A DNA stretch of 64,000 nucleotides from Deltaproteobacteria bacterium (GCA_029261875.1 JAJDAL010000033.1:143830-207829), one strand, 5' to 3'; numbered from the stretch's first letter, positions 3,941-35,142 are shown. Notes: a model not told the origin generated them from the letters alone. Numbers and translations are program-made.

Positions 3941-6900
3941 TCCCGACGCGCGCGGTCCGATCGCCTGGATGGTGCACCATCGCGTGGCGCCGAATCTCTT
4001 GATGCTCGTGTTGATCGTGGGCGGCGTTCTCATGGCGACGCGCATCCAGCAGGAGATCTTTCCCCAGTTCGATCTCGATACCGTGTCCGTAGTCGTCCCC
4101 TATCCCGGAGCGAGCCCCGAGGAGGTGGAAGAAGCCGTCGTTCTCGTGGTGGAAGAGGCGGTGCGCACGATCGCCGGCGTAAAGGAGGTGATCGCCACCG
4201 CGAGCGAGGGCGCGGGCTCGGTCGTCGTCGAGATGGACGAGGATGCAGATGCCCCGCGCGTCTTCCAGGACATTCAGCAGGCCGTGGCGCGCGTGCGCAC
4301 CTTCCCCGTCGACGCCGAGGAGCCGCGGGTCAGCCTGGCTCTGCGCCGACGATCGGTGCTGGAGCTGCAGCTCTACGGCGACGTCGCGGAGTTCGTGCTG
4401 CGCGACCTGGCGGAGCAGCTGCGCGATCGGCTCCTGCAAGAATCCGAAATCACCCAGGTCGACTTGCGCGGCGCGCGTGCGACGGAGATCCACGTGGAGA
4501 TCTCCCAGGCGGATCTGCGGCGCTACGGGTTGACACTATCCGGTGTCGCCTCACGCCTGCGCAGCACGGCTCTCGATGTTCCGGGGGGGAAGATCGACAC
4601 CCCGGGTGGTGAGGTGCTGTTGCGGGTGAAGGAACGGCGCAACTGGGCCCACGAGTTCGCCGAGATCCCCATCGTTACCACGGCGTCTGGGGCGTCCTTG
4701 CGATTGGGCGACGTCGCGCAGGTGAGTGAGGGGTTCGAGGACACCCATCGCAATGCCACCTACAACGGTTTGCCCGCCATTCGACTGGACGTATTCCGCG
4801 TGGGAGACCAGACGCCCGTGAGTGTTTCCCAAGCCGGGCGCCGGGCCCTGGCGGACATCGAAGCGGACCTCCCGCCAGGTGTCCGCATCGCAATCCAGGA
4901 CGACGATTCGGAGATCTACACCCAACGCCGCGACTTGCTCGTGAAGAATCTGCTGTTGGGACTCACGCTGGTGCTGTGTGTGTTGGGCGTTTTTCTCGAA
5001 CCGCGCCTGGCCTTCTGGGTCACCATGGGCATACCGACTTCCTTCCTCGGCGCGTTCCTGCTGCTGCCGTGGATGGGAATCACGATCAACATGATCTCGA
5101 TGTTCGCGTTCCTGGTGGCGCTCGGAATCGTGGTGGACGATGCCATCGTGGCGGGCGAGAACATCCACGAGCACCGCGAGCGCGGGATGGAGCCCGAAGA
5201 GGCGGCGATCAAGGGGGCGCGCGACGTCGCGACGCCCATCGGGAGCAGCATTCTCACCAACCTGATTGCCTTTGCGCCCCTGGCCCTGGTGCCGGGTCGG
5301 TTGGGGAAGATCTGGTATTCGATTCCCCTGGTGGTGGGGAGCGTGTTCGTGATTTCGTGGATCGAGTCGCTGCTGATTCTGCCATCTCATCTCGCCCACG
5401 CGTCGCCGTCGCGGCGGGGACGGTTGCAGCGGTTTCGCGATGCGGTGCAGCGCCACTTCACGCACTTCGTCGAGCGGCGCTATGCGCCTTTCCTCGCTAC
5501 CGCGGTGCGCTATCGCTACGTCACGGTTGCGGCGGGCGTGGGGGTGCTCGTGGTCATCATCGCCTATGTGGTCTCCGGGCGCTTGGGCATGGTGTTGATG
5601 CCGCGCGTGGAATCGGATCGCGCGGTGGCGACGGCGCGACTTTCCTTCGGAAGCCCACTGGCGGCGGCGGAGTCCGTGCGCGATCGACTGTTGGACGGCG
5701 CGCGGGCCGTGGCGGATGCGGGCGGGGGGGAAACGCTCGTCACCGGAACCTTCGCCCTGATCGAGGAGAACAGCGTAGAGGTCGACGTCTACCTCACGCC
5801 GCCGGGCGTGCGGCCGCTCTCTACCGCCGAAGTGTCCCGTCGCTGGCGCGAGGCGGTGGGCGCCATTCCCGGAGTCGAGTCCCTGCGCTTCGAGTCGAAC
5901 GCCGGCGGTCCCGGGCGCGGTGCCGCGTTGACGGTGGAACTCTCCCACCGCGACGTCGAAGTGCTGGATCGCGCCAGTGAGCAGCTCGCCGCAACCCTCG
6001 AGCAGTTCCCCAACACCAAGGACGTGGACGACGGCTACTCGCCCGGAAAACCCCAACTCGATTTTCGTCTGCTCCCCGCCGCGCGCAGCCTGGGACTCTC
6101 TTCCGCCGATGTGGCGCGCCAGGTACGCGACGCGTTCTACGGCGCGGAGGCGCTGCGTCAGCAACGCGGTCGGGATGAGGTTAAGGTTCAGGTGCGTCGT
6201 CCCGAGCGCGAACGCGTGAGCCTCGCGAATGTGGAGCACCTGTTGATCCGCACGCCGGCCGGAACCGACGTACCGCTGCTGGAGATCGCGGAAGTGGAAC
6301 GCGGGCGCGCCTACACGCGCATCAATCGCCGCAATGGAAGACGCACGGTTTCCGTTACCGCCGACGTAACCCCCCAGGATCAGACCAACCAAGTGCTTGC
6401 CGCGGTGCGGACCCAGGAGATTCCGCAGCTGGTGCGCGACTACCCGGGGCTCGCCACCAGCTTCGAAGGGCGCCAGGCCGACATGCGGGAATCCCTGGCG
6501 GCCCTGCGCAATGGATTTCTCGTGGCGTTGCTCGCCATCTATGCCGTCCTCGCGTTGCCGTTTCGCAGTTACCTGCAGCCCGCCATCGTGATGCTCGCCA
6601 TCCCCTTCGGCATCGTGGGTGCGGTTCTCGGGCACTGGATCATGGGTTTCAGCCTGAGTGTGATCAGCATGATGGGAATCATCGCGCTCTCGGGCGTGGT
6701 GGTGAACGATTCGCTGGTGATGATCGACTACGCCAACCGCCGACGCCAGGAGGGGGCGACTGCCTACGAGGCCATCATGCGCGCCGGGACGCGCCGCTTT
6801 CGTCCCATCTTGTTGACGACGCTCACCACGTTTGGCGGCCTCGCACCGATGATCTTCGAGACCTCCCGCCAAGCGCGCTTCATGATCCCCATGGCAATTT

Positions 6901-9951: not shown

Positions 9952-10121
9952 CGAACGTCACCAGCCAAGCCCAACCGGGCGCATACGCCCTTTCCGAGTG
10001 TTCAAATCTGTTGAATCTCGGCAAAACATGATCGAACAAATGATTTTCCGTGATTACCCGCGGCTCTCAATCGTAACTTGTGATATTCGCTGCAGCTCAT
10101 TTACGCTTGGGGAGATTCGTC

Positions 10122-10631
10122 ATGCTGAACCCACGCAGCCCGCAAACCCGTCGCGTCGTTAAACGAACGGTCGCCGCACTCATTTGCCTGATACTCCCAT
10201 CCTTCCTGCTCGTCACCCCTGAAACGGTACATGACTGGGTCCTAGAACGAGTTCGCAAACGGGAACGCGTCGCCAAGGAGATCGCGCGTCAGCGTCGCCC
10301 CCTCACGAATCAGGCACCCGATGCGAGCGAAAAACTAGACGACGTCTATGTAACTGTTCGCAAGGCCCTCGCGAGAACGAACGTCGGCAAAGATGGTTCC
10401 GGTACGGACCGCAGCAGCCGTCCGAATGACGAGACCCTCCAAGACATCATCCACCGCATCCAAGCACCGCCTCGGGACTCTGAGGAACACCGTGCCCTCA
10501 TCGAAGAGAGACAGAAACTTCGTCGACGTCTCGTGACCCGGGGTGGCACCGAAACCCTCGCCAAAGCCAACCCCAATCTCCGCGAGCCTTCCCTCGTGCC
10601 CCTCCCAGTGCGACTCCGGGAGGGGAACTAG
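10122..10631 (+). CDS. hypothetical membrane-anchored, highly charged protein immediately upstream of the RHS gene
   Basis: ATG 10122 is preceded by GGGGAG 8 nt upstream; the track ORF starts earlier, at GTG 10080. MLNPRSPQTRRVVKRTVAALICLILPSFLLVTP is a basic N-region plus one TM helix. The rest is Arg/Glu-rich. The stop at 10631 lies 2 nt before the RHS ATG. Confidence 0.5.
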   Translation: MLNPRSPQTRRVVKRTVAALICLILPSFLLVTPETVHDWVLERVRKRERVAKEIARQRRPLTNQAPDASEKLDDVYVTVRKALARTNVGKDGSGTDRSSRPNDETLQDIIHRIQAPPRDSEEHRALIEERQKLRRRLVTRGGTETLAKANPNLREPSLVPLPVRLREGN

Positions 10632-10633
10632 CC

Positions 10634-13600
10634 ATGGGAGTTCTAAAGCGAACACTCGTCGGCATTCTCGCTCTCCTCGGCCTCGCGTCGACGGCGACTG
10701 GCCAAAACTCGACCGAGGCGTCTCAAGGCGTCAACGGCTTTTTTGGTTCGTTCTCGACCGAAATTCCGATCGAGGTACCGCCCTTTCACGGCATCCAGCC
10801 CCGAATCAAGTTGGTGTACAACTCCGGTTCCCAAAACGGCTGGGTGGGTGTGGGGTGGAACGCTGCCGCGACGTCGATCGTCCAGAGAACTTCCGCGCGC
10901 CGCGGAGCTCCGAAGTACGACACCACCGACATCTACATGATCGACGGAATGGAGCTGGTTCCCTGCACGACGCAGGGCGGAACTCACTGCACTCGAATCC
11001 AGAACTTTGCGCGGGTTGAGCGCAACGAAGCGAGCGACCACTGGACCGCCACTGGCACCAACGGAAACGTCGCGGTCTACGAACCCCTGCTTTCCATCGC
11101 AGAGGGAACGTTTCGGTGGGCGTTGACCAGCGTCACGGACCCCCTCGGGCACACGGTCGACTACGAGTACTGGTGCGACGGACAGGACTGCTACCTGGAC
11201 CGAATTTCGTACACAGGTGCAGAAATTCAGTTCCTTAGCGAAACGCGCCCCGACCCGATTCCGTTTGGAAACGGAAAGTGGATCAACCGCACAAACTACC
11301 GCCTCAAGGCGATTGACGTGCGAGTCTTTGGTTCCACCGCCAGAGCATACCAGCTCGACTACGACACGGGATCGAGCACAGGACGATCTCGGTTGATCAA
11401 CGTTCAGCTATTCGGAAATGACGCCCTAGTCAACGGAACCCAAATATCGGGGACCAGCTTCCCCCCGCAAACCCACAGCTATCAAGAGCTCCAGAACGCC
11501 AACTACGGAGGTGGCCCCGCGTGGGCAACAATTCTCAACAACGGCGGAAACCAATTTCAACCTGGGCAGACGCGTGTAGTCGACATTTCGGGAGACGGAT
11601 TCGACGACCTAATCTTTCAAGATGACCTGAATGCGTTCCACGTCGCTCTTTCCACGGGAACGGATTTTTCGTCACCACAGACTCCAACCATCGACCACGG
11701 AGGCGGATTCGAAGCGGGGCGGGCCCACTATGCCGATGTCAACGGCGACGGGCGGAGTGACCTCATTTTCCAAGGAAACAGCAACGAGTTCTATGTTTCG
11801 TTGTCGGACGGATCCAACTTCCTTCCGGGTGCAATCTGGGAAGATCATGATGGATCCTTCGTCTACGGCCAGGCTCAGTTCGGCGACGCAAACGGGGACG
11901 GACTCGCAGACCTCATTTTCCAAGGTAATGACAACGCCTTCAATGTTTCGCTTTCCTCCGGGACTGACTTCATGCCGTCTTCCGTATGGGGGCAGCACGG
12001 TGGCGACTTTGTCAGTGGACAGGCTCAGTACGCCGACTTCAATGGCGACGGCATGATCGACCTCGCGATGCAAACCGACAATGGTCCAACCCTGACTCAG
12101 TTCCACATCTGGCTTTCGGACGGCACTCAGTTTGTCGGAAGCCCGAGCTGGGGAGGACACGGCGAGCAATTTCAACCCGGTCAGGCCGCCTACGCGGACG
12201 TCAACGGCGACGGAATGTCAGATCTGATATTTCACGCAAACAACAACATCTGGTGGGTCAATCTTTCGCGCGGAACCACCTTCGACGGTGCAAATCATTG
12301 GTTCAGTCAGCCGGGGTCGTCCGAGCCCGGCCGAACCGGATACGGCGACTTCAACGGCGACGGCCGTGTCGACATTTCCGTCCAATTGTCCGGCACGGGG
12401 CAACAGTTTTTGATTGGACTATCAAACGGCCTTCAGTTTGTCCATTCCGGCGCGTGGATCGGCCACGGGGGCGGATACGTCAACGGTGCAATGACGTACG
12501 GCGACGTCAACGGCGATCGCCTTACGGATTTTGTCTACCGAGGCGGCTCCGACTACTGGGTCAACAACAGCCTCGGTGAAATTCCCGACCTGCTATCCGC
12601 TGTCGACAACGGGCGAGGGGGAAGTACGCAGGTCGTCTACGACCCATCGACGCGGTGGAATACGACACCAGGAACCGAGCTCCCACTGGGACTAATCCAA
12701 CCAGTTGTTTCTTCGGTGATCTCTTCGGATGGACGAACCAACCCTTCGACGACCGACTACTTTTACGAGGGAGCAAAGTGGGAGTCGACTGAACGTCGGT
12801 TCCTGGGGTTCCACACGACAACCGAAGTCATGACAGCGGTTGGCAGCTACGCGATCACGGAGTTCCTTCAGAACGCCTACGCGATCAACAAGCCCGCACA
12901 GCGGTGGTTGTTCGGGCCGAACGACGAACTCCTCTCAGGCGAGATGCTCCAGTACACAGAGAACACCGAAAACCCACCCTTTACATCGCTTCTCACATCA
13001 CGCTGGCAATATGAATGCAACGGCGTTCCCACAATCACGCAGTGTCGGGAGACTCGAATTGATTTTGCGTACGACATCTATGGGAATGTCTATGAAACAG
13101 TGGAGCACGGAGACACCAACGTTATCGGTGACGAACGCATGCGCACACGTGGACACTTTCCGAACACGGTCGACTACCTCGTTGGATTCCCCGCCTTCGA
13201 AGAGGTTTTCGAGGGGATGGGCGACCCTGGAACGCTTCTCCTCGTGCAACGCTCCGAGAATCTCTACGACGGAAACACTGCAATAGATCAACCGCCGACA
13301 GACGGACTCGTCACCTCGAAACGCCGACTGAAGGATGGCGGCGGCTTCGCTGAATCGTTCTACACATACGATTCCCACGGAAACGTGAAGACGGAAGCCG
13401 ACGAACGCGGGCACCAGACTACGTACCAATGGGACACGAAGGTCTACCAGTACGAGACATCGCGTTGTAACGGATTTGACCACTGTGTCACAGAGACGCA
13501 CGACCTTGACTTCAGTACGGTCCGCTTCTCGACGGATGAGAATGGGATAGCAACTGAATTTCGCTACGACGCCCTAGGGCGAATAGTAGACATCATTCGC

Positions 13601-16423
13601 GTTGATGGGACCAACCGATCGTTCCAATACCTCGATACGGGCGACCCGAACCTACAACGCGTTCGTGAAACAGCATACGACGGAACCCCAGATGGACTCT
13701 GGACGGAGAAATACCAGGACGGCCTTGGTCGGGTATTCAAGACCGTCCGGGAAGGACCGATAGAGGGTGGCCAGCCTACGACTCTTGTTCAAGAAACCAT
13801 CTATGACGGGTCCTCCACGCGCGCCCTGCAGCGATCGCTATGGCACCGAGGAACCGAATCACCGCGCTTCGTCACTTTCTCTTACGACGCCGCGCTTCGC
13901 CCCCGAATCGTCACCAACCCGGATCTTTCTGAGCGCGAAACCCTATATGGACTAATTTTTGGCATTCCAGTCGAAACTCGATCGGATGAAAACGGGAATC
14001 AAACGATTTACCTCAAGGACGCCTATGGACGCACCGCCGCGATTTTCGAAAGCGACGGTGAAACGACGATCCCGACAACATTCAACTACGACTCCCTCGA
14101 CCGTGTCGTCAGCACCCTGACCGACAAGGAGATTACGGTCACATGGAACCTCCTCGGCGAGCGCACCGAGCTCTGCGACCCCAACTTCGGGTGCGTGACG
14201 CACACCTACGAGGCAGGCGGTCTACTCGCCGTAAGGACCGACGCCAAGAATCAGACCCTCACTTATGACTACGATGCCATCGGTCGCGTCCGATTCGAAG
14301 CCTCGTCTGACGGCGATGTCCACGAGTGGCGGTATGACGAAGCGAACCATGGGTACAGCGCTGGGCGCCTCACGACCATTCTCTATCCCGCCGGCTCCGA
14401 GTCCTTTGAATATGACACGTTTGGTCGAGAGACGGCTGTCACGCGAACGATCGCGGGCGCAGGATCGAAGACATTCCTTGCTGCTTATGGCGCCACCAGT
14501 CGACTCGAATCGCTGACCTATCCAGACAGCGAAATCGTCACCTACCAATATGATGAGTCGGGCCGACTGTCGTCCGTCCCCGGGTATGCTCCAACCCTCG
14601 AATGGTCACCTAGCGGGCAGCTGAGACAGATCGAATACGCAAACGGGACAACCTCGCGGTTCGACTATGACCAAGACCGACTCTGGCTCGATCGCTCCCG
14701 AGTCGACGGCCCCCGCGGAAACTATTACGACGTTTCGTACGAATACGACGTCGGTGCTCGCCTCGTGACAAGCAATTCGACGCTGAACCCCGAGATGAAC
14801 CTCGGCTACCAATACGATCCCCTAAACCGACTAATTGGGGTTACAGGCTCCCAGTCCCAGTCGTTCGACTACGGCACGCGGGGCAACACGCTCTACAACA
14901 GCTCCCTGGGAGACTATTTCTACGAAGCCGCCGCTCACCCTCATGCTGTCACACGCGTAGGCGACAAGAACTATCAGTACGATACAAACGGAAATTTAAA
15001 ACGAATGTGGCTTTCGACCGGCAGCGGAAGCTGCGGCCAGAATACGATAGCGACCCTTACGTGGAGCGGCCGAGACCGGCTCGAATCAATCGACAAGCTG
15101 GGTGCACTCGTTGAGTTCGCTTACGACAGCGAGAACATCCGCGTGCGAAAGACGACTGCCACGGGGAGCACTTACTATTTTGGTGACATCCTCGAGGTCC
15201 TCGAGGACGGAACCGAAGTCAAGTACTACAACGCGGCAGGGATACTTATCGCGAAAAGAGTTGGCTCAGATCCGTTCTGGTTCCACGCGGATCGCCTCGG
15301 TTCTCCCAAGCTAATCACCGACGCACAAGGCCAAATCGCATCGTCTTTCGAGTACTCCTCCTTTGGGGAAGAAACAACGATGTCTGGCTCGATGGCCAGT
15401 GGACGCGGATATACGGGACACCGTCTCGACTCCGAAACCGGTCTCGTGTATATGAACGCGCGATACTACGACCCCGAGCTGGGACGATTCATTTCCTCTG
15501 ACGATTTCGTTCCCAACCCGAACAACCCGCAAACGTTCAACAAGTACGCCTACGCAGACAACAATCCTATTTCCAACGTCGATCCCAGCGGAAACAACGC
15601 CAAAGACATCATCACGAAGATCGCTGCCGTTTTCCTCGCAGTGTTCCTACCGCCCGGATATGCGCTTCTCGTGGGCGTGATTGGGTTGGGACTTTCAATA
15701 GCCGGTTTCGCGACCGAGAACCCAACACTTGTTTTTATCGGGCAAATTCTCCTTGGAGTCGCGGCGACAAATCTAGTTGGTGGAAATCTTCTATCACCGG
15801 CTGGCAATCCAGGCACAAGCCCAGGCTGGCCGCATTTTGGGGGAACTTTCTCTGATGGAGGTACGGGGAACACGACCAACAAGATTCGAGAAGCCGTCGA
15901 CGCTGTCGACAAAGCTAGGGAAATTTCTCAAGCGGTTGGCGAGAAACGCAAAGAAACCGCGAAAGACGACGCGGCCGCCAACCTGGCACTTGATCAGCTT
16001 CGAAAATACAATCCAATTTCGGTCGAAACCGACACTGAGTATGGCGGTTTTATCTATGAATTTGGAGATGGAACGTTGGGCGCAACGCCATCGGTGTCGT
16101 CTCCTTGCCTCGGGGGAACCAGCTGTGAGCTTCCGTTGGGGGACCTAGCTGAGTCGATCCCGGATGACGCCTCAATCATTCTCGACTGGCATACGCATGG
16201 GGCGGCACCCGCCACGAACCCGATGCGCTGGGAGCGATTCAGCAGGAATGATGTGATGGGAACCAATCAATTGGGGTCCTCTTATGGAACGTTCCGGGGT
16301 TCTTACCTTGGCACACCTCAAGGACGCGTCTACTTCTTGCCTCCGGGACGAATCTCGGGATCTCAATGGTCCGAGCGAGCGATTCGGCAGGCGCAACAAT
16401 ATCAAGGGAGAATCCCAAGGTGA
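10634..16423 (+). CDS. SpvB-N / FG-GAP propeller / RHS (YD-repeat) polymorphic toxin with a variable C-terminal domain
   Basis: 1929 aa. Signal peptide MGVLKRTLVGILALLGLASTATGQ. SpvB-type N-domain (SFSTEIPIEVPPFHGIQPRIKLVYNSGSQNGWVGVGWNAAATSIVQRTSARRGAPKYD). Seven FG-GAP/VCBS repeats. Many YD repeats (YDALGR, YDSLDRV, YDAIGRV, YDESGRL, YDPLNRL...). RHS core end: YMNARYYDPELGRFISSDDFVPNPNNPQTFNKYAYADNNPISNVDPSGN. Confidence 0.92.
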   Translation: MGVLKRTLVGILALLGLASTATGQNSTEASQGVNGFFGSFSTEIPIEVPPFHGIQPRIKLVYNSGSQNGWVGVGWNAAATSIVQRTSARRGAPKYDTTDIYMIDGMELVPCTTQGGTHCTRIQNFARVERNEASDHWTATGTNGNVAVYEPLLSIAEGTFRWALTSVTDPLGHTVDYEYWCDGQDCYLDRISYTGAEIQFLSETRPDPIPFGNGKWINRTNYRLKAIDVRVFGSTARAYQLDYDTGSSTGRSRLINVQLFGNDALVNGTQISGTSFPPQTHSYQELQNANYGGGPAWATILNNGGNQFQPGQTRVVDISGDGFDDLIFQDDLNAFHVALSTGTDFSSPQTPTIDHGGGFEAGRAHYADVNGDGRSDLIFQGNSNEFYVSLSDGSNFLPGAIWEDHDGSFVYGQAQFGDANGDGLADLIFQGNDNAFNVSLSSGTDFMPSSVWGQHGGDFVSGQAQYADFNGDGMIDLAMQTDNGPTLTQFHIWLSDGTQFVGSPSWGGHGEQFQPGQAAYADVNGDGMSDLIFHANNNIWWVNLSRGTTFDGANHWFSQPGSSEPGRTGYGDFNGDGRVDISVQLSGTGQQFLIGLSNGLQFVHSGAWIGHGGGYVNGAMTYGDVNGDRLTDFVYRGGSDYWVNNSLGEIPDLLSAVDNGRGGSTQVVYDPSTRWNTTPGTELPLGLIQPVVSSVISSDGRTNPSTTDYFYEGAKWESTERRFLGFHTTTEVMTAVGSYAITEFLQNAYAINKPAQRWLFGPNDELLSGEMLQYTENTENPPFTSLLTSRWQYECNGVPTITQCRETRIDFAYDIYGNVYETVEHGDTNVIGDERMRTRGHFPNTVDYLVGFPAFEEVFEGMGDPGTLLLVQRSENLYDGNTAIDQPPTDGLVTSKRRLKDGGGFAESFYTYDSHGNVKTEADERGHQTTYQWDTKVYQYETSRCNGFDHCVTETHDLDFSTVRFSTDENGIATEFRYDALGRIVDIIRVDGTNRSFQYLDTGDPNLQRVRETAYDGTPDGLWTEKYQDGLGRVFKTVREGPIEGGQPTTLVQETIYDGSSTRALQRSLWHRGTESPRFVTFSYDAALRPRIVTNPDLSERETLYGLIFGIPVETRSDENGNQTIYLKDAYGRTAAIFESDGETTIPTTFNYDSLDRVVSTLTDKEITVTWNLLGERTELCDPNFGCVTHTYEAGGLLAVRTDAKNQTLTYDYDAIGRVRFEASSDGDVHEWRYDEANHGYSAGRLTTILYPAGSESFEYDTFGRETAVTRTIAGAGSKTFLAAYGATSRLESLTYPDSEIVTYQYDESGRLSSVPGYAPTLEWSPSGQLRQIEYANGTTSRFDYDQDRLWLDRSRVDGPRGNYYDVSYEYDVGARLVTSNSTLNPEMNLGYQYDPLNRLIGVTGSQSQSFDYGTRGNTLYNSSLGDYFYEAAAHPHAVTRVGDKNYQYDTNGNLKRMWLSTGSGSCGQNTIATLTWSGRDRLESIDKLGALVEFAYDSENIRVRKTTATGSTYYFGDILEVLEDGTEVKYYNAAGILIAKRVGSDPFWFHADRLGSPKLITDAQGQIASSFEYSSFGEETTMSGSMASGRGYTGHRLDSETGLVYMNARYYDPELGRFISSDDFVPNPNNPQTFNKYAYADNNPISNVDPSGNNAKDIITKIAAVFLAVFLPPGYALLVGVIGLGLSIAGFATENPTLVFIGQILLGVAATNLVGGNLLSPAGNPGTSPGWPHFGGTFSDGGTGNTTNKIREAVDAVDKAREISQAVGEKRKETAKDDAAANLALDQLRKYNPISVETDTEYGGFIYEFGDGTLGATPSVSSPCLGGTSCELPLGDLAESIPDDASIILDWHTHGAAPATNPMRWERFSRNDVMGTNQLGSSYGTFRGSYLGTPQGRVYFLPPGRISGSQWSERAIRQAQQYQGRIPR
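11582..12545 (+). other. seven tandem FG-GAP/VCBS-like Ca-binding repeats inside the RHS protein (probable 7-bladed propeller)
   Basis: DISGDGFDDLIFQ, DVNGDGRSDLIFQ, DANGDGLADLIFQ, DFNGDGMIDLAMQ, DVNGDGMSDLIFH, DFNGDGRVDISVQ, DVNGDRLTDFVYR, at a period of roughly 45-50 aa. Confidence 0.8.
15593..16420 (+). other. RHS C-terminal variable (payload) domain downstream of the DPSG core boundary
   Basis: 276 aa after ...NVDPSG (15581-15592). Two hydrophobic TM-like stretches: IITKIAAVFLAVFLPPGYALLVGVIGLGLSIAGF and PTLVFIGQILLGVAATNLVGG. A soluble region follows, with EYGGFIYE (from 16037), WHTHG (16187-16201) and FSRND (16238-16252). Confidence 0.7.
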
Positions 16424-16833
16424 TTCGAACAAATCGAGCTTGTTCATCTGTACTATTTTCACTTCTGCTCGCCACGTCGTGGTCGGCGCACGCCGAGTCT
16501 CCTGCTCCCCACGACCCCGCGGAGAACTATCCCGAAGCTATCGAGCAGGTGACGGTTTCATCCAAACTGCTTGCCGCATTCCTTGCCGCATACGAGGCCG
16601 ACCGAACTTGGACCAAGCAGAAAGAGGGCATAGATCTCTCACTCGCCGAGTTTGTCCGCCGAAACGACCGCGTGTTCTTGACGAAACTCGCCGACGGAAC
16701 GTTCGACATTCAGATGGGAGGAGATTCCAAAGGAGACATGTCCGCGAAGCCAATGCGGTTTCCCAAACTGGGACGGCGATACATCCTTGATGGCTCAAAT
16801 TTCTCGGTGATCGAGAGCTTCTTTGACAGGTGA
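16420..16833 (+). CDS. putative cognate immunity protein (exported), no recognised family
   Basis: GTG 16420 overlaps the RHS stop (GTGA), with GGGAG 9-13 nt upstream. VIRTNRACSSVLFSLLLATSWSAHA|ESP reads as a Sec signal peptide with an AHA cleavage site. Its position directly 3' of the RHS toxin fits the usual toxin-immunity order. The track ORF starts at 16366, inside the RHS gene. Confidence 0.5.
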   Translation: MIRTNRACSSVLFSLLLATSWSAHAESPAPHDPAENYPEAIEQVTVSSKLLAAFLAAYEADRTWTKQKEGIDLSLAEFVRRNDRVFLTKLADGTFDIQMGGDSKGDMSAKPMRFPKLGRRYILDGSNFSVIESFFDR

Positions 16834-16880: not shown

Positions 16881-18335
16881 CTAGAGAATTGGAACCGTTC
16901 TCAACGAGGTATTGGGCATTTCCCGCGCCTCCTGAATGAGACCCGCCCGCCCTATGGGGTCAACCATCCCCGAGCCCCCACCGTGGGTCGCCCTAATCCA
17001 CGGTCGCCTCGTCTCAATCGCCCTGAACGTCGCGGCCGCAAGGTGCTGTAGCGACTCACTGGGTGAGTGGAACCACGAATCGCTTACGAGAGCGATGTAC
17101 ACATCGGGGATAAGCCGACTCATTTTCATGATATGGTCTTTGTCAAGATCTTCCGAGCAAATTGCAGGAGCGATAACTATCGAACCAAACGGAATCGTTT
17201 CCACTCGTCGCCCGTAAGCGAGGACCGGCGCATCGGGAAGTCTTCGTCGAATTTTTTCGCTTGCCCGAGGGAACCTCGTTTCCGCGAAGGGAGTTTCCGC
17301 AACCGGAACCAGCTGAACCTTGTCATATCGCCCTAGGATTTCTCCACTTTCCCCTACAAGAACGGCCGAGTTCCATACGCGCTCGGTCCCAATTTCGTGC
17401 GTGAGAGTGCCGAACAAGATGGGGACGTTGGTTCCCCGACGCTGAGCCCAAGGATGGTGCTCCGAAAAAATTCGCGTCGCAGCGCGATCCATTCGGTACG
17501 GCCAGACTGCCTCGGGCCAAACCACGAGGTCTGCACCCATATCCGCGAGATCCTTCGTTCCCTTACGAAGGACCTCGACGTATTCCTGAGCGCGCTCCTG
17601 GCGTTCCGAGAGGGTGAGGTGTCCGAATCCTGGTTCGACGATGCCCACTCGAATCGTTTGAGCTGACTCCATCGAACGCATGACTTGGTAGGCTCGAATC
17701 AATCCACTCGCTTGGACCAACCCAAACACGGCGAGCGCCAACCCGGTCAATCGGTAGAGCGCTACTCCGTTCCGCCAAGCGACGAAGCATTCTCCCACGA
17801 TGACGTTCGCCAACACGATGAGCGCAACGACGGCTGAAGTGCCTCCCCACTCGGCGACCTGAATCAGCGGCCAGAGGCGCCACCAGAGAATCGCGAGGTC
17901 CCACTCGAACAGAGGCGGAGGAAACGAGCTCGAAACCATTGCGACGACCGGTGCTGCAACCAGCCATGGAATCCGCTCCCGTCGGCCCACAACAAGCCGG
18001 GTCAACCCTGCCCAGATTCCAAGCTGAAGACCGTGGTATGCGCAAAGAAGCATTGCTCCGAGGAGCGCGACCGGAATCGGGAGGTCCGCGAACCGCATGA
18101 GAGTCGGCGTCCACCACCAACACCCGACAAAGTTCACGACGAAGCCCGTGACCCAACCCGCCTTGAAAGAAGCCCCCACCCTTAATCCGCGGATAGCGAT
18201 CCAAAGAGGAATCAGGCAAACGAACGAGAAGATCCAGACGTCGTAGGGAGGGGCGGCGACGACAACGAGGCCGCCAGACAGGAGCGAGTGGTAGATCCAG
18301 GGGTGCTGAGGAAGCCAGCTGCGTCTGCCGTGCAC
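16881..18335 (-). CDS. lnt: apolipoprotein N-acyltransferase
   Basis: 484 aa. Polytopic N-terminal half plus a CN-hydrolase domain with an E-K-C triad context: VVWPEAVWPY, RYDKVQLVPVAETPF, IAPAICSEDL. Confidence 0.8.
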   Translation of the reverse strand: MHGRRSWLPQHPWIYHSLLSGGLVVVAAPPYDVWIFSFVCLIPLWIAIRGLRVGASFKAGWVTGFVVNFVGCWWWTPTLMRFADLPIPVALLGAMLLCAYHGLQLGIWAGLTRLVVGRRERIPWLVAAPVVAMVSSSFPPPLFEWDLAILWWRLWPLIQVAEWGGTSAVVALIVLANVIVGECFVAWRNGVALYRLTGLALAVFGLVQASGLIRAYQVMRSMESAQTIRVGIVEPGFGHLTLSERQERAQEYVEVLRKGTKDLADMGADLVVWPEAVWPYRMDRAATRIFSEHHPWAQRRGTNVPILFGTLTHEIGTERVWNSAVLVGESGEILGRYDKVQLVPVAETPFAETRFPRASEKIRRRLPDAPVLAYGRRVETIPFGSIVIAPAICSEDLDKDHIMKMSRLIPDVYIALVSDSWFHSPSESLQHLAAATFRAIETRRPWIRATHGGGSGMVDPIGRAGLIQEAREMPNTSLRTVPIL

Positions 18336-19909: not shown

Positions 19910-21046
19910 ATGTTGAAACCTTCGCACGGAATTCTGGCGTTCGCGATGGTCGGCCTCCTCACGGGCTGTCCGGTCAATAAGACGACACTCATCGTTGGAA
20001 CGGCGAGCTTTGGCAACGAAACCGGCGGTGGCTGGTTTGAACGATTCAAAGGCCTTCCACCGGGAGACTCCAAAGGCTGGGACCGGGTTTCTGAATTCGA
20101 TCTCTATAGCGACAGCGGGGGTGGCGCTCGCCCCGTCCTGTGCAACTTCGATGACGATGGCCGAAATGAAGTTGCCATCGGGTTGGACAGCCTTCCCGGC
20201 AATGGAGGCTGGGTACAAATCCTAGACGATGAATCAACAGGCTTCGCCCATCTCGCATGGGTGCGGTACCGAACCAACACGATCTACGATTCCAACAACG
20301 GAGAAACACGACCCGCCTGCGGCGACGTCGACGGCGACGGTCGGGATGAGCTCGTGGTGGGCGGTGGCCCTGGAAGCAGCACGCTCCTGCAGATCTTCGA
20401 TGATGCCACCACGGACTTCGCGCATCTCGACTACCAACTACTGCTCACCGACATTGGGTACCTGGTTACCAACGGCGAGACACGGCCCGTGTTGTGCGAT
20501 GTAGACGGCGACAATCGGGATGAGATCGTGATGGGCCTCGGATCCTTCCATTCGGGCAAAGGCGGCCGAGTCGCCATCTTTGACGATGCGCTACGTGAAT
20601 ACAGGCTGCTCACTGAGCTGCAGACCACCTGGGGCGCTGCTCGAACAAAGGGTACGGGAACACGACCCGCCTGTGGTGATCTCGACGGCGACGGTCTGGA
20701 CGAGATCGTGATGGGCTTCGGCCCCGGCACGAAAGGCTGGCTCGAAATCTTCGACGATGCCGTCGCAGTGCATGCGCCCATCGGCTGGACTCGGGTGAGC
20801 TGGACCGACTACAACGACGCGCAAGGAGAAACCTTCCCGGCCTGCGGTGACATCGACAACGATGGTGTCGCTGAGCTGGTGATCGGCCTCGGCGCCTATC
20901 CAGAGAACGGTGGCTGGTTCGAAACCCAGGACGGCTTTGATCGCAGCGATCCCGTGCAACTGCTCGACAACCGCGATTGGGGGCGACTCGATTGGGAAGA
21001 ATACAACGAGTTCAGCGGTGCGACGTTTCCGACAGTGGGTCGTTAG
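19910..21046 (+). CDS. FG-GAP/VCBS-repeat lipoprotein
   Basis: 378 aa. AGGAGA RBS. Lipoprotein signal MLKPSHGILAFAMVGLLTGC. Five repeats of the type CNFDDDGRNEVAIG, CGDVDGDGRDELVVG, CDVDGDNRDEIVMG, CGDLDGDGLDEIVMG, CGDIDNDGVAELVIG. Confidence 0.75.
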   Translation: MLKPSHGILAFAMVGLLTGCPVNKTTLIVGTASFGNETGGGWFERFKGLPPGDSKGWDRVSEFDLYSDSGGGARPVLCNFDDDGRNEVAIGLDSLPGNGGWVQILDDESTGFAHLAWVRYRTNTIYDSNNGETRPACGDVDGDGRDELVVGGGPGSSTLLQIFDDATTDFAHLDYQLLLTDIGYLVTNGETRPVLCDVDGDNRDEIVMGLGSFHSGKGGRVAIFDDALREYRLLTELQTTWGAARTKGTGTRPACGDLDGDGLDEIVMGFGPGTKGWLEIFDDAVAVHAPIGWTRVSWTDYNDAQGETFPACGDIDNDGVAELVIGLGAYPENGGWFETQDGFDRSDPVQLLDNRDWGRLDWEEYNEFSGATFPTVGR

Positions 21047-21132
21047 GCAAGGGGGCTGCTGGCGAGCGGCATACGTGGCCGATGCCGGCAGCCCCTAACC
21101 AGGAGTCTCCTGGAGACAGATCGGATGCTGCA

Positions 21133-22398
21133 ATGAAATCGTGGTGGCTGCTTATCCTACTTCTTTCGCTGGTTGCGATTCCTGCTGTCGCTGCCGAGCC
21201 CGCGCAGATCGGAAGCCTGGCGCTTCGCGACCTGCGCGCGCCGTCGGCCATCGAGCTGTCGACGGACGGCGCCACCCTGTACCTGGGCACGGTGCGAAGT
21301 CGAAAGCCTGAGCTCTACGTCATCGACGCGTCAATCCCGGAAGCGCCTGTGATCGCGGATCTCGTGGAAGTTGGAGCCCGTGTCCATGACATCGTGCTCG
21401 GCAATGGTCGGATCTATCTCGCGACAGGACACCCCGCGACGGAGCTCCTGATCCTGGATGCCGGAACCCATGCGGAGGCCGGCCGCTACGACCTGCCTGG
21501 ACGGCGCGCTGCGCGTTCGCTCGAGCTTCTGGAGAATGGCAACCTCCGAGTCGGCCGGAAACGCGGACAGGGCGCGCAGTATTTCGAGATCGACGTCCGC
21601 GATCCCCATCTTCCCGTGCTGATCGGTACCTCGAACTCCCCCAATCGCATCCCACGGCCCACTCGCGCCAGCGCGCCTCCTTCCTATCGCGAGGCTGGGC
21701 TGGTGCGAGCACGCCAGGATTTCCCCATTCCCTTCGGAACGCGCTTCTTCCTGGTCAGTCGGGTTCGCGGGCGCGGGTTGCTCCAGGTCGTCGAGCAAAT
21801 CGCGCCGGTGCGATTCCTCGACGCCAACGGCGACGGCCGTTTCGTGCTCGGATGCTTGGGAGATTCCAATACCGTCGCCAGCCCCTCATTCAAGAGGTGG
21901 TGCGACCGCCTGAAAGAGCGGGTCAACGACAGCCAATTCCGCATCCACAACATCGCGGTCTCCGGCGCAACCGCCAACTCGAATCTCAACCCGGCCCAGC
22001 CGGGCAACGATTTGCCCAATCAGATGGCGGAGATCCCCTCGCTTCGACCCGCGCTGGACGCCGTGGTGATGAGCTTTGGCACCAACGACATCTTTCAGGG
22101 GCGGCCGCCGGAGACGGTGGTGGACGCGTATCTCGCAGCCGCCGAGCTGGCCGAGGCGAGAGGTCTCGCGGTCTATGTCACCACCACGCCACCGCTACGG
22201 GGATGTCTGGATGCCGGATGTCCCGGGGCGGAGGCACAGAATGCGCTGATCCGTACGGCGTTCCCCGGGCAGTTCATCGAATTCTACGACGGCATCCACG
22301 AAGCGCAGTTTGCCGACGGCATTCATTTCAACGCCGACGGACAGATGCTTCGGATGCAACGGGCCTTTGACATGATCGCCGTCGAGGAGGCGGACTGA
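21133..22398 (+). CDS. exported protein: beta-propeller-like N-terminal half plus SGNH/GDSL hydrolase domain
   Basis: ATG 21133 gives the signal peptide MKSWWLLILLLSLVAIPAVAAEP; the track ORF starts upstream at 20977, inside the previous gene. LVIVD-like strands (ELYVIDASIPEAPV, ELLILDAGTH). SGNH blocks: LGCLGDSNT (I), SFGTNDI (III), DGIHFNADG (V). Confidence 0.7.
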   Translation: MKSWWLLILLLSLVAIPAVAAEPAQIGSLALRDLRAPSAIELSTDGATLYLGTVRSRKPELYVIDASIPEAPVIADLVEVGARVHDIVLGNGRIYLATGHPATELLILDAGTHAEAGRYDLPGRRAARSLELLENGNLRVGRKRGQGAQYFEIDVRDPHLPVLIGTSNSPNRIPRPTRASAPPSYREAGLVRARQDFPIPFGTRFFLVSRVRGRGLLQVVEQIAPVRFLDANGDGRFVLGCLGDSNTVASPSFKRWCDRLKERVNDSQFRIHNIAVSGATANSNLNPAQPGNDLPNQMAEIPSLRPALDAVVMSFGTNDIFQGRPPETVVDAYLAAAELAEARGLAVYVTTTPPLRGCLDAGCPGAEAQNALIRTAFPGQFIEFYDGIHEAQFADGIHFNADGQMLRMQRAFDMIAVEEAD

Positions 22399-25300
22399 TG
22401 ACCGCACTGAATCGGATCCCGGTGGCCGCCCTCGCGGGAGTACTTCTTGTCTTCGCCGCCCCTGCCTCGGCAGGGATCGACAAGGAAAACCTCGTCGCCA
22501 TCATCAGCCCCGCGACCGTCACGCCGGCCGTCGAGCTCCCCATCGAGCCCGGCGAGACCTCGACCCAGGTGCTCCTGGAGGTTCGATTCGGTGAGTTGCC
22601 CGACGGGACGGGCGCAGATCCGGATACCTTCAAGCCGCGCTTCACCGGAATCAAGTCGAAGCTTCTGCTCCCGATATTCGAGGACGTGACCGACTCGGAC
22701 GGTCGCCTCGTCGGAAAACGGGCTGTCGTCGACATCCCCTACGTGAGCGACAGGAAGAACTACAGATTCTCCGCGCGGGTGAAGTCGAAGCCCTATCAGA
22801 GCGATTCCGGACGCTTCCGCACCACCAGCGATACGGACCGCGCGCGGCTGCGGCTGCGGCGCAATACGCCGCCAGTGATCGCGAACCTGCGCCTCGGCGG
22901 AGAAACACTCGAGAACGCCGACGGCTCCTGGCGAGTCAATCCGGGGCAGGGGATCACCGTGGAAGCCGACCTCTCGGATCCCGATGGCGATCGGGTGGTC
23001 CATTACAGTGTCGACTTCGGAGACAATGCCTCCGCCGAACGCACCAGCTCAGCTGGCTTCGGCCATGTGAGCGAGCCGCACACCTATCAGGGAACCGCGA
23101 GCAGCTACCGGATCTTCATCACGGCCTCCGACGGGGTCACGTCGACGAGCGCAGAGCTGAACCTGGCGTTGAACAGTGCCCCAGTGCCGGTTCTGCGGAT
23201 TCTCCCCGAGGAAGGCACCTTCCTCTACCCCGTGCTCTTCGATGCGCTCGACAGCGTCGACTCCGACGGCGATGCGCTCCGCTACGAGTTCGATTTCGGG
23301 GACGGCACAACACCCACGATCGGTAGCGAGCCCCGCGTCGAGCACATCTATCCCCGGCCCGGCAAGACCAAGGTGGTCTATCCGGTGCGAGTCACCGCTC
23401 GCGATTCCCTCGGTCTCTCCGCCTCGGTCCAACGCGAACTGGTGGTCAAGCGGGCGCTTACCGGGGAGACTCTGCTGCAGCTGGCTGCGCCACTCGGGCG
23501 CGAGACCGTTCAAGTGGGCGACCACCTGCCGGTTCGCGTCGAGGTCGGACGGGCCAGCAGCGGTGCTCTCATCGACCTCTCGAGCTTCGATGCCGCACTC
23601 AATGGCGTCGATGTCACCAGCCACTTCACTCCGGTTCTGGATCCGGAACGGGGCGGTGAGATCCTGCGTCTCGAGGGCGCGATCCCCCTCGAGCTCGTCG
23701 CTCAGGCAGGCAACAACAGCATCCGGGCGACAGCCCGCAGCCTGCCCTTCCTCAAGGTGGGGCAGACCACACCGACGACGCTCGTCGATACCGACTGGTC
23801 GCGGTATTTCCGTGTCAGCACAAACGCTCGGCCGACAGCAACTTTCACCGCCTCCCCGGGTGCACCGCTGGAGGGCGACACCGTCTCCTTCGACGCATCT
23901 GCCAGCTCTGATCCAGAGGGTGCGCCGCTCCTTTTCCGCTGGGACTTCGGAGACGGCACCCCCCTCACGACCACCGCCGCCGTCGTGACCCATGTCTACG
24001 AGAACGAAGGCATCTACCTCGTCGAGCTGACGGTATACGACGGGGTGTGGGAAGTTGTCGCGGCCCCGTTGAGTATTCCGGTGGTGCCCGAGACCGGGCC
24101 GCCGGGCGATCCGCTGCTGGAGATCTCGCCGGACAGCGCAACGGGCCTGGACTTCGGCGCGATCAATCTCGACAACGCCTTCCCTCCGTTCTTTCAGTCG
24201 GCCCGTGAGCGCATCGTCGAGATCCGGAACGCCGGTCAGGGACTGCTCTCTGTCGACTCGATCTCGCTATCGGATCCGAATGGAGTGTTTCGGATCACTT
24301 CGCCCGCGGTGCCATCGCTCCAGGCGGGCGAGAGCCACTTCCTGTCGGTGGAGTTTCGCCCGACGACTCGCTCCGCGGGCAGCCACTCGGCCGGCATCGA
24401 GATCCGGAGCAACGGCGGAAACGCCCAGCTGAGCCTCAGCGGCGTCGGGACTCTCGATCAGGTCGAGTACTCCGACATGCTGACCGCCTTCGATGTCGAT
24501 CCCGGCCCCCCTTCGGCGGTGATTGCGGACTTCGGACTCAGCTTCGGGCGCAAGACCAGGAGATGGAACCAACTGGGCAACCAGGCGCGGCTCGAAGTAT
24601 TGCCCTCCGGTCCCTGGCCCTTCGGTCGCGTGGTGGGCGTCGAGATCGTCGGCCAAGATGCCGGGGCGTTCGGAGCCAGCCTGAACCAGACCCTCTTCGG
24701 CTTCACGCCCGGTGTCTCCCACATTTTTCCGGCCGAGTTCGACCCGCCGAATCCGCACATCGAAATATCTTTCGAGCCGGGCGAGGTCGAGAGCAGCCGG
24801 CGCTTCTCAGCGGTCATGAACGTTCATTGGCAGCACCCCATCGCGCCCTTCGTCTTCGGCTGGGTCGACGGGGAGCCGATCCAGGTGGGGCTCATGGGAG
24901 TGGCGTCGAGGGCCGGACAGGTCGCCTTCTCGGCACCGCCAATGGAGTTCCAGCGCATCGCACAGGGGCAGAGTACGGACCAGCTGGGCTCCGCCCGATC
25001 GGGGCTGGTCCCGGCCCGAATCAAAGCCACCTATCTCGCCGGAAGCGAGACCGTGACGGGCTCGGTCGAGATCACCCCGATCCATCCGCCGGGTCACTCG
25101 GCGTTCACGGTCACATCCCCCAGCTGGACCCTCGACCCCGACCAGCTGGACCCGAGCAACCCTTCGATCTTCATCCCGGTCGAGTTTCACTCGAGCACCT
25201 CCGGCCACTATTCGGCGGTCCTCAGCATGCAGCCCAACGCCGCTCACATCCCGGCCCGCAAGTTCCTGCTCCACGGCTACGTCAAGGGCGACAACTCGAT

Positions 25301-26405
25301 CGGTGTCCTCGGCAGTCCGGAGACCCTCTACTTCGTCGACGACGAGTACTTCAGCGGCTTCAGCAATGATGGCGATTTCAGCACTCGGGTGATCGGGCTG
25401 TCGGCATCCGGCGGCGTGGCCAACAACGGTCGGGGGCATGCCGACCTCGCCGTCATCGACGACCCGTTCAGCTCGCCTTCCCTCGAAGCCGGAACCGACC
25501 AGTGGATCGAGGAGCCGAGCGACGTGGTCGTTGTGAACGACACCGTCTACGCGATCGATTCGGAGGTCTTCGAGCACTCGTCCTGCGTCCCCGAGCTCAC
25601 CGACCACGCCTGCGATCGCATCGCCGCCGGCGGAATCGGAACCGGTGCAATCGTCGAGGACGACCGGTTCCTCGGGGGTCTCGAAGCGAGCTCCGGCGAC
25701 GCGGATCTCGTGTACGACGGAGAGAGCCTTCTCGAACTCGACGCCACTTCCGACGGCCGGCTCTTCTTTACCGAATCCCAGAGCTCTTCGGGCGCCGCGA
25801 TCGGAACCCGGTTGCGCTGGCACGACACCCAGAGCGGTGCGACCGGGGCCCTCAGCGACGATCTGATGGCCAGCGTCGGCGCTCCCGCCGGCTCGGTCCT
25901 CGAGGAGCTGCGGGCCATCCGCAATGGGACGAACTACCGACTCTTCGCCATTCTGGAGGACGGCGCGCTCTACGAGCTGGACGTTGCAGGTTCGACGATG
26001 ACGATCAGTGCCACCGCGGTCCTGGCCCCATCGACGCCCCCGGATGCCACCCTGGTCATCGATGCCGATGGCAACTGGATCACCGTCCTGGGCGATGGAA
26101 GCTTCATCGATGTGTGCCGCGAGAGCTTACACGCGGGGGCTTCTTCGCGGACCTGCATCGGCCACGCGGAACTCCCCGCGGAAGATCTCGCGCTTTCCGT
26201 GAAGCTGGACAAGCACGGGAACGTCTTCGTCGAGACCCAGCTTGGTGTCGTGAAGTTCGCTCCCGCCGGACCCGGCAGTCTCCGCTTTGAAGGGTACGTC
26301 CTGGCCGGCGCGAACTACCAGAGCGACAAGTTGCGGGGCGACGATCCCGAGGACACCACCGCCGACATCGACATCGACTTCACGCGCACCTGGTTCGAGA
26401 AGTGA
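22398..26405 (+). CDS. large exported PKD-domain protein with ASH/HYDIN-like beta-sandwich segments
   Basis: 1335 aa. The ATG overlaps the upstream stop (TGATG). Signal peptide ...LLVFAAPASAG. Three PKD signatures: VHYSVDFGDNAS, YEFDFGDGTTP, FRWDFGDGTPL. A later segment (LDFGAINLDN...VEIRNAGQGLLSVDSISLSDPNGVFRITSP) resembles choice-of-anchor-D/ASH domains. Confidence 0.8.
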   Translation: MTALNRIPVAALAGVLLVFAAPASAGIDKENLVAIISPATVTPAVELPIEPGETSTQVLLEVRFGELPDGTGADPDTFKPRFTGIKSKLLLPIFEDVTDSDGRLVGKRAVVDIPYVSDRKNYRFSARVKSKPYQSDSGRFRTTSDTDRARLRLRRNTPPVIANLRLGGETLENADGSWRVNPGQGITVEADLSDPDGDRVVHYSVDFGDNASAERTSSAGFGHVSEPHTYQGTASSYRIFITASDGVTSTSAELNLALNSAPVPVLRILPEEGTFLYPVLFDALDSVDSDGDALRYEFDFGDGTTPTIGSEPRVEHIYPRPGKTKVVYPVRVTARDSLGLSASVQRELVVKRALTGETLLQLAAPLGRETVQVGDHLPVRVEVGRASSGALIDLSSFDAALNGVDVTSHFTPVLDPERGGEILRLEGAIPLELVAQAGNNSIRATARSLPFLKVGQTTPTTLVDTDWSRYFRVSTNARPTATFTASPGAPLEGDTVSFDASASSDPEGAPLLFRWDFGDGTPLTTTAAVVTHVYENEGIYLVELTVYDGVWEVVAAPLSIPVVPETGPPGDPLLEISPDSATGLDFGAINLDNAFPPFFQSARERIVEIRNAGQGLLSVDSISLSDPNGVFRITSPAVPSLQAGESHFLSVEFRPTTRSAGSHSAGIEIRSNGGNAQLSLSGVGTLDQVEYSDMLTAFDVDPGPPSAVIADFGLSFGRKTRRWNQLGNQARLEVLPSGPWPFGRVVGVEIVGQDAGAFGASLNQTLFGFTPGVSHIFPAEFDPPNPHIEISFEPGEVESSRRFSAVMNVHWQHPIAPFVFGWVDGEPIQVGLMGVASRAGQVAFSAPPMEFQRIAQGQSTDQLGSARSGLVPARIKATYLAGSETVTGSVEITPIHPPGHSAFTVTSPSWTLDPDQLDPSNPSIFIPVEFHSSTSGHYSAVLSMQPNAAHIPARKFLLHGYVKGDNSIGVLGSPETLYFVDDEYFSGFSNDGDFSTRVIGLSASGGVANNGRGHADLAVIDDPFSSPSLEAGTDQWIEEPSDVVVVNDTVYAIDSEVFEHSSCVPELTDHACDRIAAGGIGTGAIVEDDRFLGGLEASSGDADLVYDGESLLELDATSDGRLFFTESQSSSGAAIGTRLRWHDTQSGATGALSDDLMASVGAPAGSVLEELRAIRNGTNYRLFAILEDGALYELDVAGSTMTISATAVLAPSTPPDATLVIDADGNWITVLGDGSFIDVCRESLHAGASSRTCIGHAELPAEDLALSVKLDKHGNVFVETQLGVVKFAPAGPGSLRFEGYVLAGANYQSDKLRGDDPEDTTADIDIDFTRTWFEK

Positions 26406-34964: not shown

Positions 34965-35142
34965 GGACGTACTCCCTGCCGCGCCTTCGGGAGAAGGCGA
35001 AAGCCGAGGAAAACATTGGGAAAACCTGTAATTGTGTGATCGACGTCGCGTGGAGACGGCCACAGGGGTGAAACCCTGAGAAGCCCATCGGCAGCGGATC
35101 CGCAAAACCCCGGGCAAGTGCGCACTCGAGATTGGCAAGTAC

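Follow-up and report, generated by a model that had tools for sequence, protein, structure and literature searches.

The 64,000-nucleotide stretch of a Deltaproteobacteria bacterium genome analyzed here (GCA_029261875.1 JAJDAL010000033.1:143830-207829; referred to below, at its full length, as the window) carries a gene for an RHS polymorphic toxin whose C-terminal tip joins a hydrophobic module to a DUF4329/Tox-JAB-2 domain, followed directly by a putative immunity gene. Positions are counted from the first letter of the window, and amino acid (aa) numbers are those of the RHS protein unless stated otherwise. The features of the locus are as follows.

10634..16423, + strand: gene for a 1929-aa fused TcB/TcC-like ("TcdB/TcaC-type") RHS polymorphic toxin (open reading frame [ORF] with Pfam and TIGR03696 matches)
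10634..10702, + strand: predicted Sec signal peptide, MGVLKRTLVGILALLGLASTATG, recognized in the sequence by K5/R6 in its n-region, a hydrophobic core, and small residues ahead of QNS
15353..15592, + strand: RHS-associated core (TIGR03696, aa 1574-1653, 81 bits) ending in NVDPSG, the presumed autoproteolytic boundary releasing the tip
15608..15781, + strand: hydrophobic module from hydropathy and Hessa scans, predicted as a short helix (aa 1659-1672) plus a helical hairpin (aa 1676-1694 and 1698-1716, the two arms joined by ATENP)
15782..15952, + strand: linker, first rich in G, P, S, T, and N and then charged where it runs into the long helix that opens the toxin domain
15953..16420, + strand: DUF4329/Tox-JAB-2 domain, aa 1774-1929 (Pfam PF14220, conservation, AlphaFold2 model, fold matches)
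16037-16039 (E1802), 16190-16192 (H1853), 16196-16198 (H1855), 16241-16243 (S1870), and 16250-16252 (D1873), + strand: predicted catalytic set
16106..16126, + strand: cysteine pair C1825-x5-C1831 in a loop that lies after the Glu strand and before the HxH strand, a candidate disulfide
16404..16410, + strand: Shine-Dalgarno sequence AAGGGAG for the immunity gene, within the end of the toxin gene and 9 nucleotides (nt) upstream of the GTG at 16420
16420..16833, + strand: putative cognate immunity gene (137 aa), its GTG start overlapping the toxin stop (GTGA)
16420-16494, + strand: predicted signal peptide of the immunity protein, its aa 1-25 (...LLLATSWSAHA/ESP, cut after SAHA)

Pfam matches in the RHS protein run from SpvB (aa 35-122) through FG-GAP_3, TcdB_toxin_midN (aa 598-733), and RHS_repeat to DUF4329. 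In a hydropathy scan with 17-residue windows, the signal-peptide region ranked second for hydrophobicity in the protein; here and throughout, signal peptides and transmembrane segments were judged by simple hydropathy scales. The NVDPSG motif (aa 1648-1653, nt 15575-15592) coincides with the end of the TIGR03696 Rhs core match, and its presumed cleavage follows from the established knowledge that RHS and TcC proteins are cut at DPxG. Beyond it lies a tip of 276 aa (15593-16420) in three parts: the hydrophobic module, a flexible linker, and the DUF4329/Tox-JAB-2 domain, which forms the last 156 aa of the protein, downstream of the Rhs core. An earlier interpretation made from the DNA alone (the sequence-only reading) had placed the boundary, the tip, and its motifs at these same coordinates. 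The whole RHS protein is a TcB/TcC-like cocoon exported by Sec, and the tip is its cargo.

The domain contains, in order, EYGGFIYE (aa 1802-1809), DWHTHG (1851-1856), and FSRND (1869-1873), which had been likened to the E...HxH...SxxD order of JAMM metalloenzymes, with DUF4329 suggested as a possible assignment. That suggestion was right: the tip scored 42.7 bits and the domain construct 44.6 bits against PF14220, for a cut-off of 28.6. An exhaustive HMMER search of 1.84 billion representatives returned 128 cluster representatives, all matching via tip residues ~121-276. HxH...SxxD was present in 114 of these 128 relatives, with T as the middle residue in 103, and in a 46-sequence alignment H1855 (H92) was invariant while E1802 (E39), H1853 (H90), S1870 (S107), and D1873 (D110) were conserved in at least 90%. 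As judged from the Pfam match and the alignment, the E...HxH...SxxD pattern is not due to chance. The 14-residue spacer between His and Ser, previously flagged as an anomaly against the canonical 7, is the second commonest in the family (18 sequences; mode 12, range 4 to 30), and 7 is found in some members. The idea that noncanonical spacing marks an inactive or novel active site was therefore rejected. Other searches added little: phmmer with the tip against PDB sequences and tblastn of the tip domain against plasmids gave no match, a typical family member used as the tblastn query found one unannotated 1.7-kb phage record, and a tighter alignment used as a genome search profile found only one distant locus, L003, in a Ktedonobacteraceae metagenome-assembled genome.

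The AlphaFold2 (AF2) model of the domain had a predicted local distance difference test score (pLDDT) of 94 and a predicted template modeling score (pTM) of 0.88. It shows a long helix over construct residues 4-36 and places the Glu within a strand, HxH where a strand ends, and SxxD where the next helix opens, which is the JAMM arrangement. Foldseek searches against the PDB ranked Rpn8, Rpn11, Mov34-MPN, EMC8, eIF3h, RadC, and cytidine deaminases at the top, all as weak matches (E ≥ 2e-3), and searches against viral models reached E = 1.7e-5 at a template modeling score of ~0.5 with proteins named JAB, RadC-like JAB, and metalloprotease. The only PDB sequence matched by the family profile was an Rpn11-like JAMM (6fjv; E = 0.2), with E, HxH, and SxxD in register. 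Prok-JAB was the only Pfam family to recur in cross-matches (19/46 members, best E = 1.3e-5), and one DUF4329 copy in the homolog P0041 scored above the Prok-JAB cut-off. As modeled and aligned, the domain is a JAB/JAMM-like fold with a complete JAMM-type catalytic set; both the fold, in the structural matches, and the E/H/H/S/D residues, in the homolog alignment, came out as the sequence-only reading had expected.

The JAMM assignment is correct yet already known. In 2012, Zhang et al. named the DUF4329 family Tox-JAB-2, with "E, H[ST]H, S, D" as its signature, and recorded it for RHS repeats and TcdB/TcaC trafficking (PMC3482391), so a JAB-like RHS payload is not the unusual toxin type it had been taken for. 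The same authors reported Imm-NTF2-2 as the partner of Tox-JAB-2 and predicted a nuclease activity, arguing that toxin JAB domains lack a ubiquitin-tail groove and may be nucleases (PMC3482391); later papers label DUF4329 an RNase. Under this explanation, the tip would be a nuclease acting on DNA or RNA in the cytoplasm, and the hydrophobic module would be a helper for translocation across the target's inner membrane. The presence of RadC among the fold matches fits it. We nevertheless consider a cytoplasmic nuclease unlikely, given the evidence on the site of action presented below.

The hydrophobic module begins six residues past the DPSG boundary; Kyte-Doolittle means over 19 residues exceed 1.6 within it (aa 1659-1716) and nowhere else in the RHS protein. 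The earlier claim of two strongly hydrophobic helices thus held for the region, whereas the first of them, a 34-aa "helix," is interrupted by PPG and divides into segments of 14 aa and 19 aa, hence the short helix plus hairpin. The longest run holding no more than one charge is 78 aa (1663-1740), compared to a mean of 39 and a maximum of 70 in 2000 shuffles. By insertion energy on the summed Hessa scale, only residues 1676-1694 come near zero (−0.2 to +1.0 kcal/mol). In the linker, G, P, S, T, and N account for 24 of the first 36 residues past the hairpin.

No homolog of the module was found among the 1.84 billion representatives or by word-index search, it has no Pfam match, and the module plus linker alone as the query gave no homolog at E ≤ 0.01. 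Strong hydrophobic segments upstream of DUF4329 were present in 10 of the 27 RHS-core-bearing relatives, plus loci L014 and L024, and in 19 of the 58 relatives having more than 100 aa upstream of DUF4329. Gly/Ala-rich hydrophobic helices directly follow DPxG in P0015, P0017, P0037, P0047, P0061, P0078, P0100, L014, and L024, and P0037 has the overall SpvB-to-DUF4329 architecture of the window protein. A membrane segment joined to an enzyme, thought unusual in the sequence-only reading, is therefore recurrent, and the layout of a hydrophobic module plus a JAB domain as a recurrent design is new relative to the accessible literature.

The module might itself be the real toxin, depolarizing or pore forming like Tse5-CT or BiTLP-CTD, with the JAB domain serving as an accessory or processing peptidase. 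Hydrophobic RHS/YD-shell C-terminal domains permeabilize membranes from the periplasm (PMC13018210; PMC9637101), the module contains the small-xxx-small motifs ALLVG, GLGLS, and GLSIA, and the Gly/Ala-rich hydrophobic stretches in L014 and L024 are very long. This explanation sits poorly with a module that has no homologs and a JAB domain whose catalytic residues are strictly conserved, and the immunity genes bear on it further.

The downstream ORF is the most informative feature of the locus. By its layout, with the overlapping start and the Shine-Dalgarno sequence inside the toxin gene, it is translationally coupled to the toxin gene, and its mature product would be ~112 aa with Arg as the last residue. 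Homologs follow toxin homologs in L001, L002, L007, and L014. An iterative hidden Markov model search over 24 downstream ORFs placed 17 in one family at E < 1e-3 (shuffled controls, E ≥ 0.8), hhalign joined two immunity subgroups at E = 5.9e-5, and the family follows DUF4329 toxins on many unrelated contigs. Neither the protein nor its family has a Pfam, NCBIfam, or PDB relative, with the profile giving nothing credible against the PDB; the family could not be linked to YbbC/Imm-NTF2-2 (hhalign E = 0.14); a word-index search with the protein found only the near-identical copy P0129; and fold matches of its single-sequence AF2 model (pLDDT 56) are meaningless. A second, uncatalogued immunity family for DUF4329 toxins is new relative to the accessible literature. 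Arg is the last residue in at least 90% of the family (...FFDR, ...FER, ...YER, and ...HHR; window 16420-16830 and 16 loci), which hints at a function for the C terminus itself, such as insertion into the JAB active site. In L032 (1102-1623), an immunity-family protein with an apparent tandem domain duplication and without a signal peptide is encoded after a small standalone DUF4329 toxin.

Homologous immunity genes also follow toxins that have no hydrophobic segment (L001, L007, L008, L015, and L016). The immunity family thus tracks the JAB domain, and the immunity protein is predicted to be soluble and secreted rather than an integral membrane protein; both points count against the module as the real toxin, an explanation that we regard as improbable. 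A dedicated, conserved immunity gene also implies that bacteria are the targets. This bears on a third explanation, in which a Tc-like BC cocoon would deliver a JAMM deubiquitinase or isopeptidase to eukaryotes and the hairpin would be targeted to host membranes. JAMM enzymes are classically deubiquitinases, and the SpvB/TcdB_midN/RHS architecture is that of the insecticidal TcB-TcC components. Viral and fungal homologs exist, but the ubiquitin-tail-binding residues are not conserved according to Zhang et al. (PMC3482391), and the 64-kb window contains no TcA-like translocator gene and no type VI secretion system (T6SS) gene. An anti-eukaryotic effector is, on balance, very improbable.

Several features of the family bear on where the toxin acts. 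C1825 and C1831 are invariant among the 11 closest sequences, and across the family, 60 sequences have no Cys residue between E and HxH, 50 have two, and 9 have one. This bimodal 0-or-2 pattern fits a disulfide, and we infer that the covarying pair forms one. Signal-like hydrophobic N termini were found in 22 to 23 of the 28 downstream partners, including those of all nearest relatives, and the L012 partner has a lipobox. In Klebsiella and Escherichia coli, RhsD-DUF4329 is followed by YbbC, which is a Pfam Imm-NTF2-2 protein (91 bits) with a lipoprotein-like leader, MKYSSIFSMLSFFILFA, before C, and the Imm-NTF2-2 partner in L025 also has a predicted signal peptide. In the collection of Zhang et al., Imm65 is described as the sole lipoprotein among the immunity proteins (PMC3482391), so the lipoprotein-like leader of YbbC/YhhH may have been overlooked. 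L037 (Klebsiella oxytoca NZ_CP069916.1) encodes YbbC/YhhH, the textbook partner of RhsD, at 2954-3322, and the RhsD tip there has seven cysteines.

Copies of the domain outside RHS proteins show related features. A Rhizobium plasmid encodes a standalone DUF4329 lipoprotein, and P0049 is a standalone DUF4329 protein with a Flp-pilin leader. In the F-type TraG proteins P0046, P0064, and P0074, DUF4329 lies within a long extension at the C terminus, and P0074 additionally carries a Tse3-type peptidoglycan muramidase domain; the TraG fusions suggest a role in cell-wall remodeling at the mating channel, outside toxin systems. The exported immunity proteins, from two unrelated families, the Cys pair, the muramidase/TraG fusions, and the lipoprotein and pilin leaders on standalone copies all point to an extracytoplasmic site. 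The toxin is probably met in the periplasm, for the window's clade and probably for most of the family, and this envelope-directed reading is new relative to the accessible literature. A cytoplasmic nuclease is difficult to reconcile with the export of the immunity proteins at the window locus, in all nearest relatives, and in the E. coli/Klebsiella Imm-NTF2-2 case, with the 0-or-2 Cys pattern, or with the fusions to muramidase and TraG.

Other observations weigh against envelope action or against a part for the module in it, and the first two also favor a cytoplasmic nuclease. The immunity proteins of Salmonella PAAR-Rhs-DUF4329 are reported to have no signal peptide or transmembrane segment (PMC10469887, Table 2). 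L024 joins a strong hydrophobic module to an immunity candidate without a signal peptide. Leaderless partners also accompany the small standalone toxins (L017-L020, L018, and L032). The Cys pair was not significantly associated with the immunity signal peptide (counts of 10/1/12/5, p = 0.35; with the Cys pair of L004/P0037 included, the counts are 11/1/11/5, and the p value belongs to the former set). The immunity protein could be exported because the toxin precursor leaves the producer by Sec, rather than because of where the target is attacked, and the signal-peptide and transmembrane calls come from hydropathy scales, not dedicated predictors. The second hairpin arm is marginal on the Hessa scale (+2 to +3 kcal/mol). 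Lastly, the toxin domains of P0001-P0003, 64 to 76% identical, occur without the module, which is therefore separable from the enzyme and not needed for it.

Taking both sides together, we give a probability of roughly 50% to the reading that the tip is a periplasm-acting, membrane-tethered envelope metallo-amidase or peptidase rather than a nuclease or RNase. A charge-free helical hairpin, as in pore-forming colicins, can insert from the periplasmic side. In the proposed sequence of events, the precursor would be exported by Sec and cut itself at DPSG, with the tip staying inside the shell. After delivery, the charge-poor hairpin would enter the inner membrane of the target from the periplasm, leaving both of its ends outside and so tethering the zinc hydrolase to the outer (periplasmic) face. 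The enzyme would then cleave an amide or isopeptide bond in a component of the envelope, the leading candidate substrate being a peptidoglycan stem peptide or cross-link and the second being lipoproteins, and the exported immunity protein would block the toxin in the periplasm by direct binding. Sequence evidence and what is known of the family underlie Sec export, autoproteolysis, and immunity pairing; hairpin insertion and bond hydrolysis are what we infer beyond these. For action from the periplasmic side, there are precedents: BiTLP-CTD of B. inaquosorum, a hydrophobic YD-shell C-terminal domain, is toxic only from the periplasm (PMC13018210), and Tse5-CT of P. aeruginosa, a hydrophobic RHS C-terminal domain, is reported as a second precedent (PMC9637101).

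The GC content is 56.8% for the RHS gene and ~54.6% for the tip plus the downstream gene, compared to 62% for the whole window. These drops suggest horizontal acquisition and are consistent with a horizontally acquired island in which the toxin-immunity cassette has a separate origin. The neighboring genes encode an RND efflux operon, a methyltransferase, lnt, and FG-GAP, GDSL lipase, PKD, DUF6701, sulfatase, and IDH proteins. Large, probably secreted proteins are clustered at 19910-26405 and 30492-35138; they include an FG-GAP protein (378 aa), a GDSL lipase-domain protein (473 aa), and a PKD-repeat protein (1335 aa), with a DUF6701/Laminin_G_3 protein (1547 aa) on the opposite strand to these three. 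Upstream, a 183-aa ORF with a predicted N-terminal membrane anchor, RRVVKRTVAALICLILPSFLLV (10080-10631, + strand), stops 3 nt ahead of the RHS start. It has no Pfam match, and its comparison with a similarly built ORF at the P0037 locus (L004 1-597, overlapping the RHS start) was not significant (E = 0.24); its product could be an accessory factor.

The window carries lnt at 16881-18335 (− strand). A second lnt lies at L009 5141-6718 and is 27% identical, which indicates distant organisms, and lgt is present at L005 8317-9234 and L004 8386-9300. The three RHS loci concerned (the window, L009, and L004/L005) are of the SpvB type and have a hydrophobic module in the DUF4329 tip, and the lipoprotein-maturation gene lies downstream at a distance of one to three genes; the adjacency was not found in 23 further (metagenome) loci. 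It may be a coincidence, a lineage-specific trait, an insertion hotspot, or a functional link. The SpvB-type RHS locus of L009 also encodes two paralogous small secreted proteins (2511-2936 and 4585-4998) without Pfam matches, which share the stretch SGDWxTEGRLRRAxQRWDLDLVRxGDVVRGTIDVADSPLVSRGAVQGR. The first lies between the immunity gene of the main RHS gene and an orphan toxin cassette, and the second lies after the immunity gene of that cassette.

A more specific and speculative version, which we think is probably not correct in full, can be stated. In it, Tox-JAB-2/DUF4329 would be the first extracytoplasmic JAB/MPN-fold family, a periplasmic zinc amidase, here pinned by its hairpin to the outer face of the inner membrane and cutting an isopeptide-type bond of the envelope; the lnt/lgt neighbors would mark the targeted pathway, and the C-terminal Arg of the immunity protein would plug the active site as a product mimic. 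The bonds conceivably cut would be those in the stem or cross-link of peptidoglycan, the bond joining Lpp to peptidoglycan, or the N-acyl amide of lipoproteins. DUF4329/Tox-JAB-2 tips are widespread, from E. coli RhsD and Xanthomonas to PAAR-Rhs-DUF4329 proteins in more than 150 Salmonella serotypes (Salmonella survey), and their routine annotation as RNases rests, in the accessible literature, on an untested conjecture from 2012. If envelope action is true, a common toxin family would be reassigned, JAB/MPN chemistry would extend to the periplasm, and there would be a simple model for tethering RHS cargo to a target membrane.

The window protein can be compared to several known systems. With the Tc TcB-TcC cocoon (Photorhabdus TcdB2-TccC3), it shares the signal peptide, SpvB, an FG-GAP beta-propeller, TcdB_midN, the RHS shell and core, and a hypervariable tip; it differs in that B and C are fused, no TcA partner is found in the window, and the tip has an immunity gene. 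E. coli/Klebsiella RhsD-DUF4329 resembles it in the RHS core, the DUF4329 tip, and the small immunity protein encoded downstream, whose N terminus bears an export signal, but RhsD has no hydrophobic module (maximum 19-residue Kyte-Doolittle value, 0.89), its tip is Cys rich, and its partner, YbbC/YhhH, is Imm-NTF2-2. RhsD is delivered via the T6SS, not by Sec with an SpvB domain. The hydrophobic segment directly after the shell cleavage site is shared with Tse5-CT (PMC9637101) and BiTLP-CTD (PMC13018210), which, however, are purely membrane-active tips, whereas in the window a short N-terminal module precedes a conserved enzyme and immunity tracks that enzyme.

The T6SS amidase effectors (Tae/Tai and Tse/Tsi) offer an analogy, following the logic of PMC10469887, in that an exported immunity protein would mark a periplasmic site of action; like the pore-forming colicins, they are unrelated in fold and sequence and serve as analogies only. 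JAMM/MPN+ enzymes (Rpn11, AMSH, archaeal JAMM, and Prok-JAB) carry Glu, HxH, Ser, and Asp in the same order and at the same secondary-structure positions as the modeled domain, whereas the window domain has a spacer of 14 rather than 7, an extra long N-terminal helix, a Cys-pair loop, an extracytoplasmic context, and no ubiquitin-like partner. Tox-JAB-2/PF14220 as published agrees in the Pfam model, which the window domain passes, in the E/H[ST]H/S/D motif, in the C-terminal position after RHS, and in the listed TcdB/TcaC type. It differs in that the window's partner belongs to an uncatalogued exported family instead of Imm-NTF2-2 and a hydrophobic module stands ahead of the domain; the context points to the envelope, whereas the published prediction is a nuclease.

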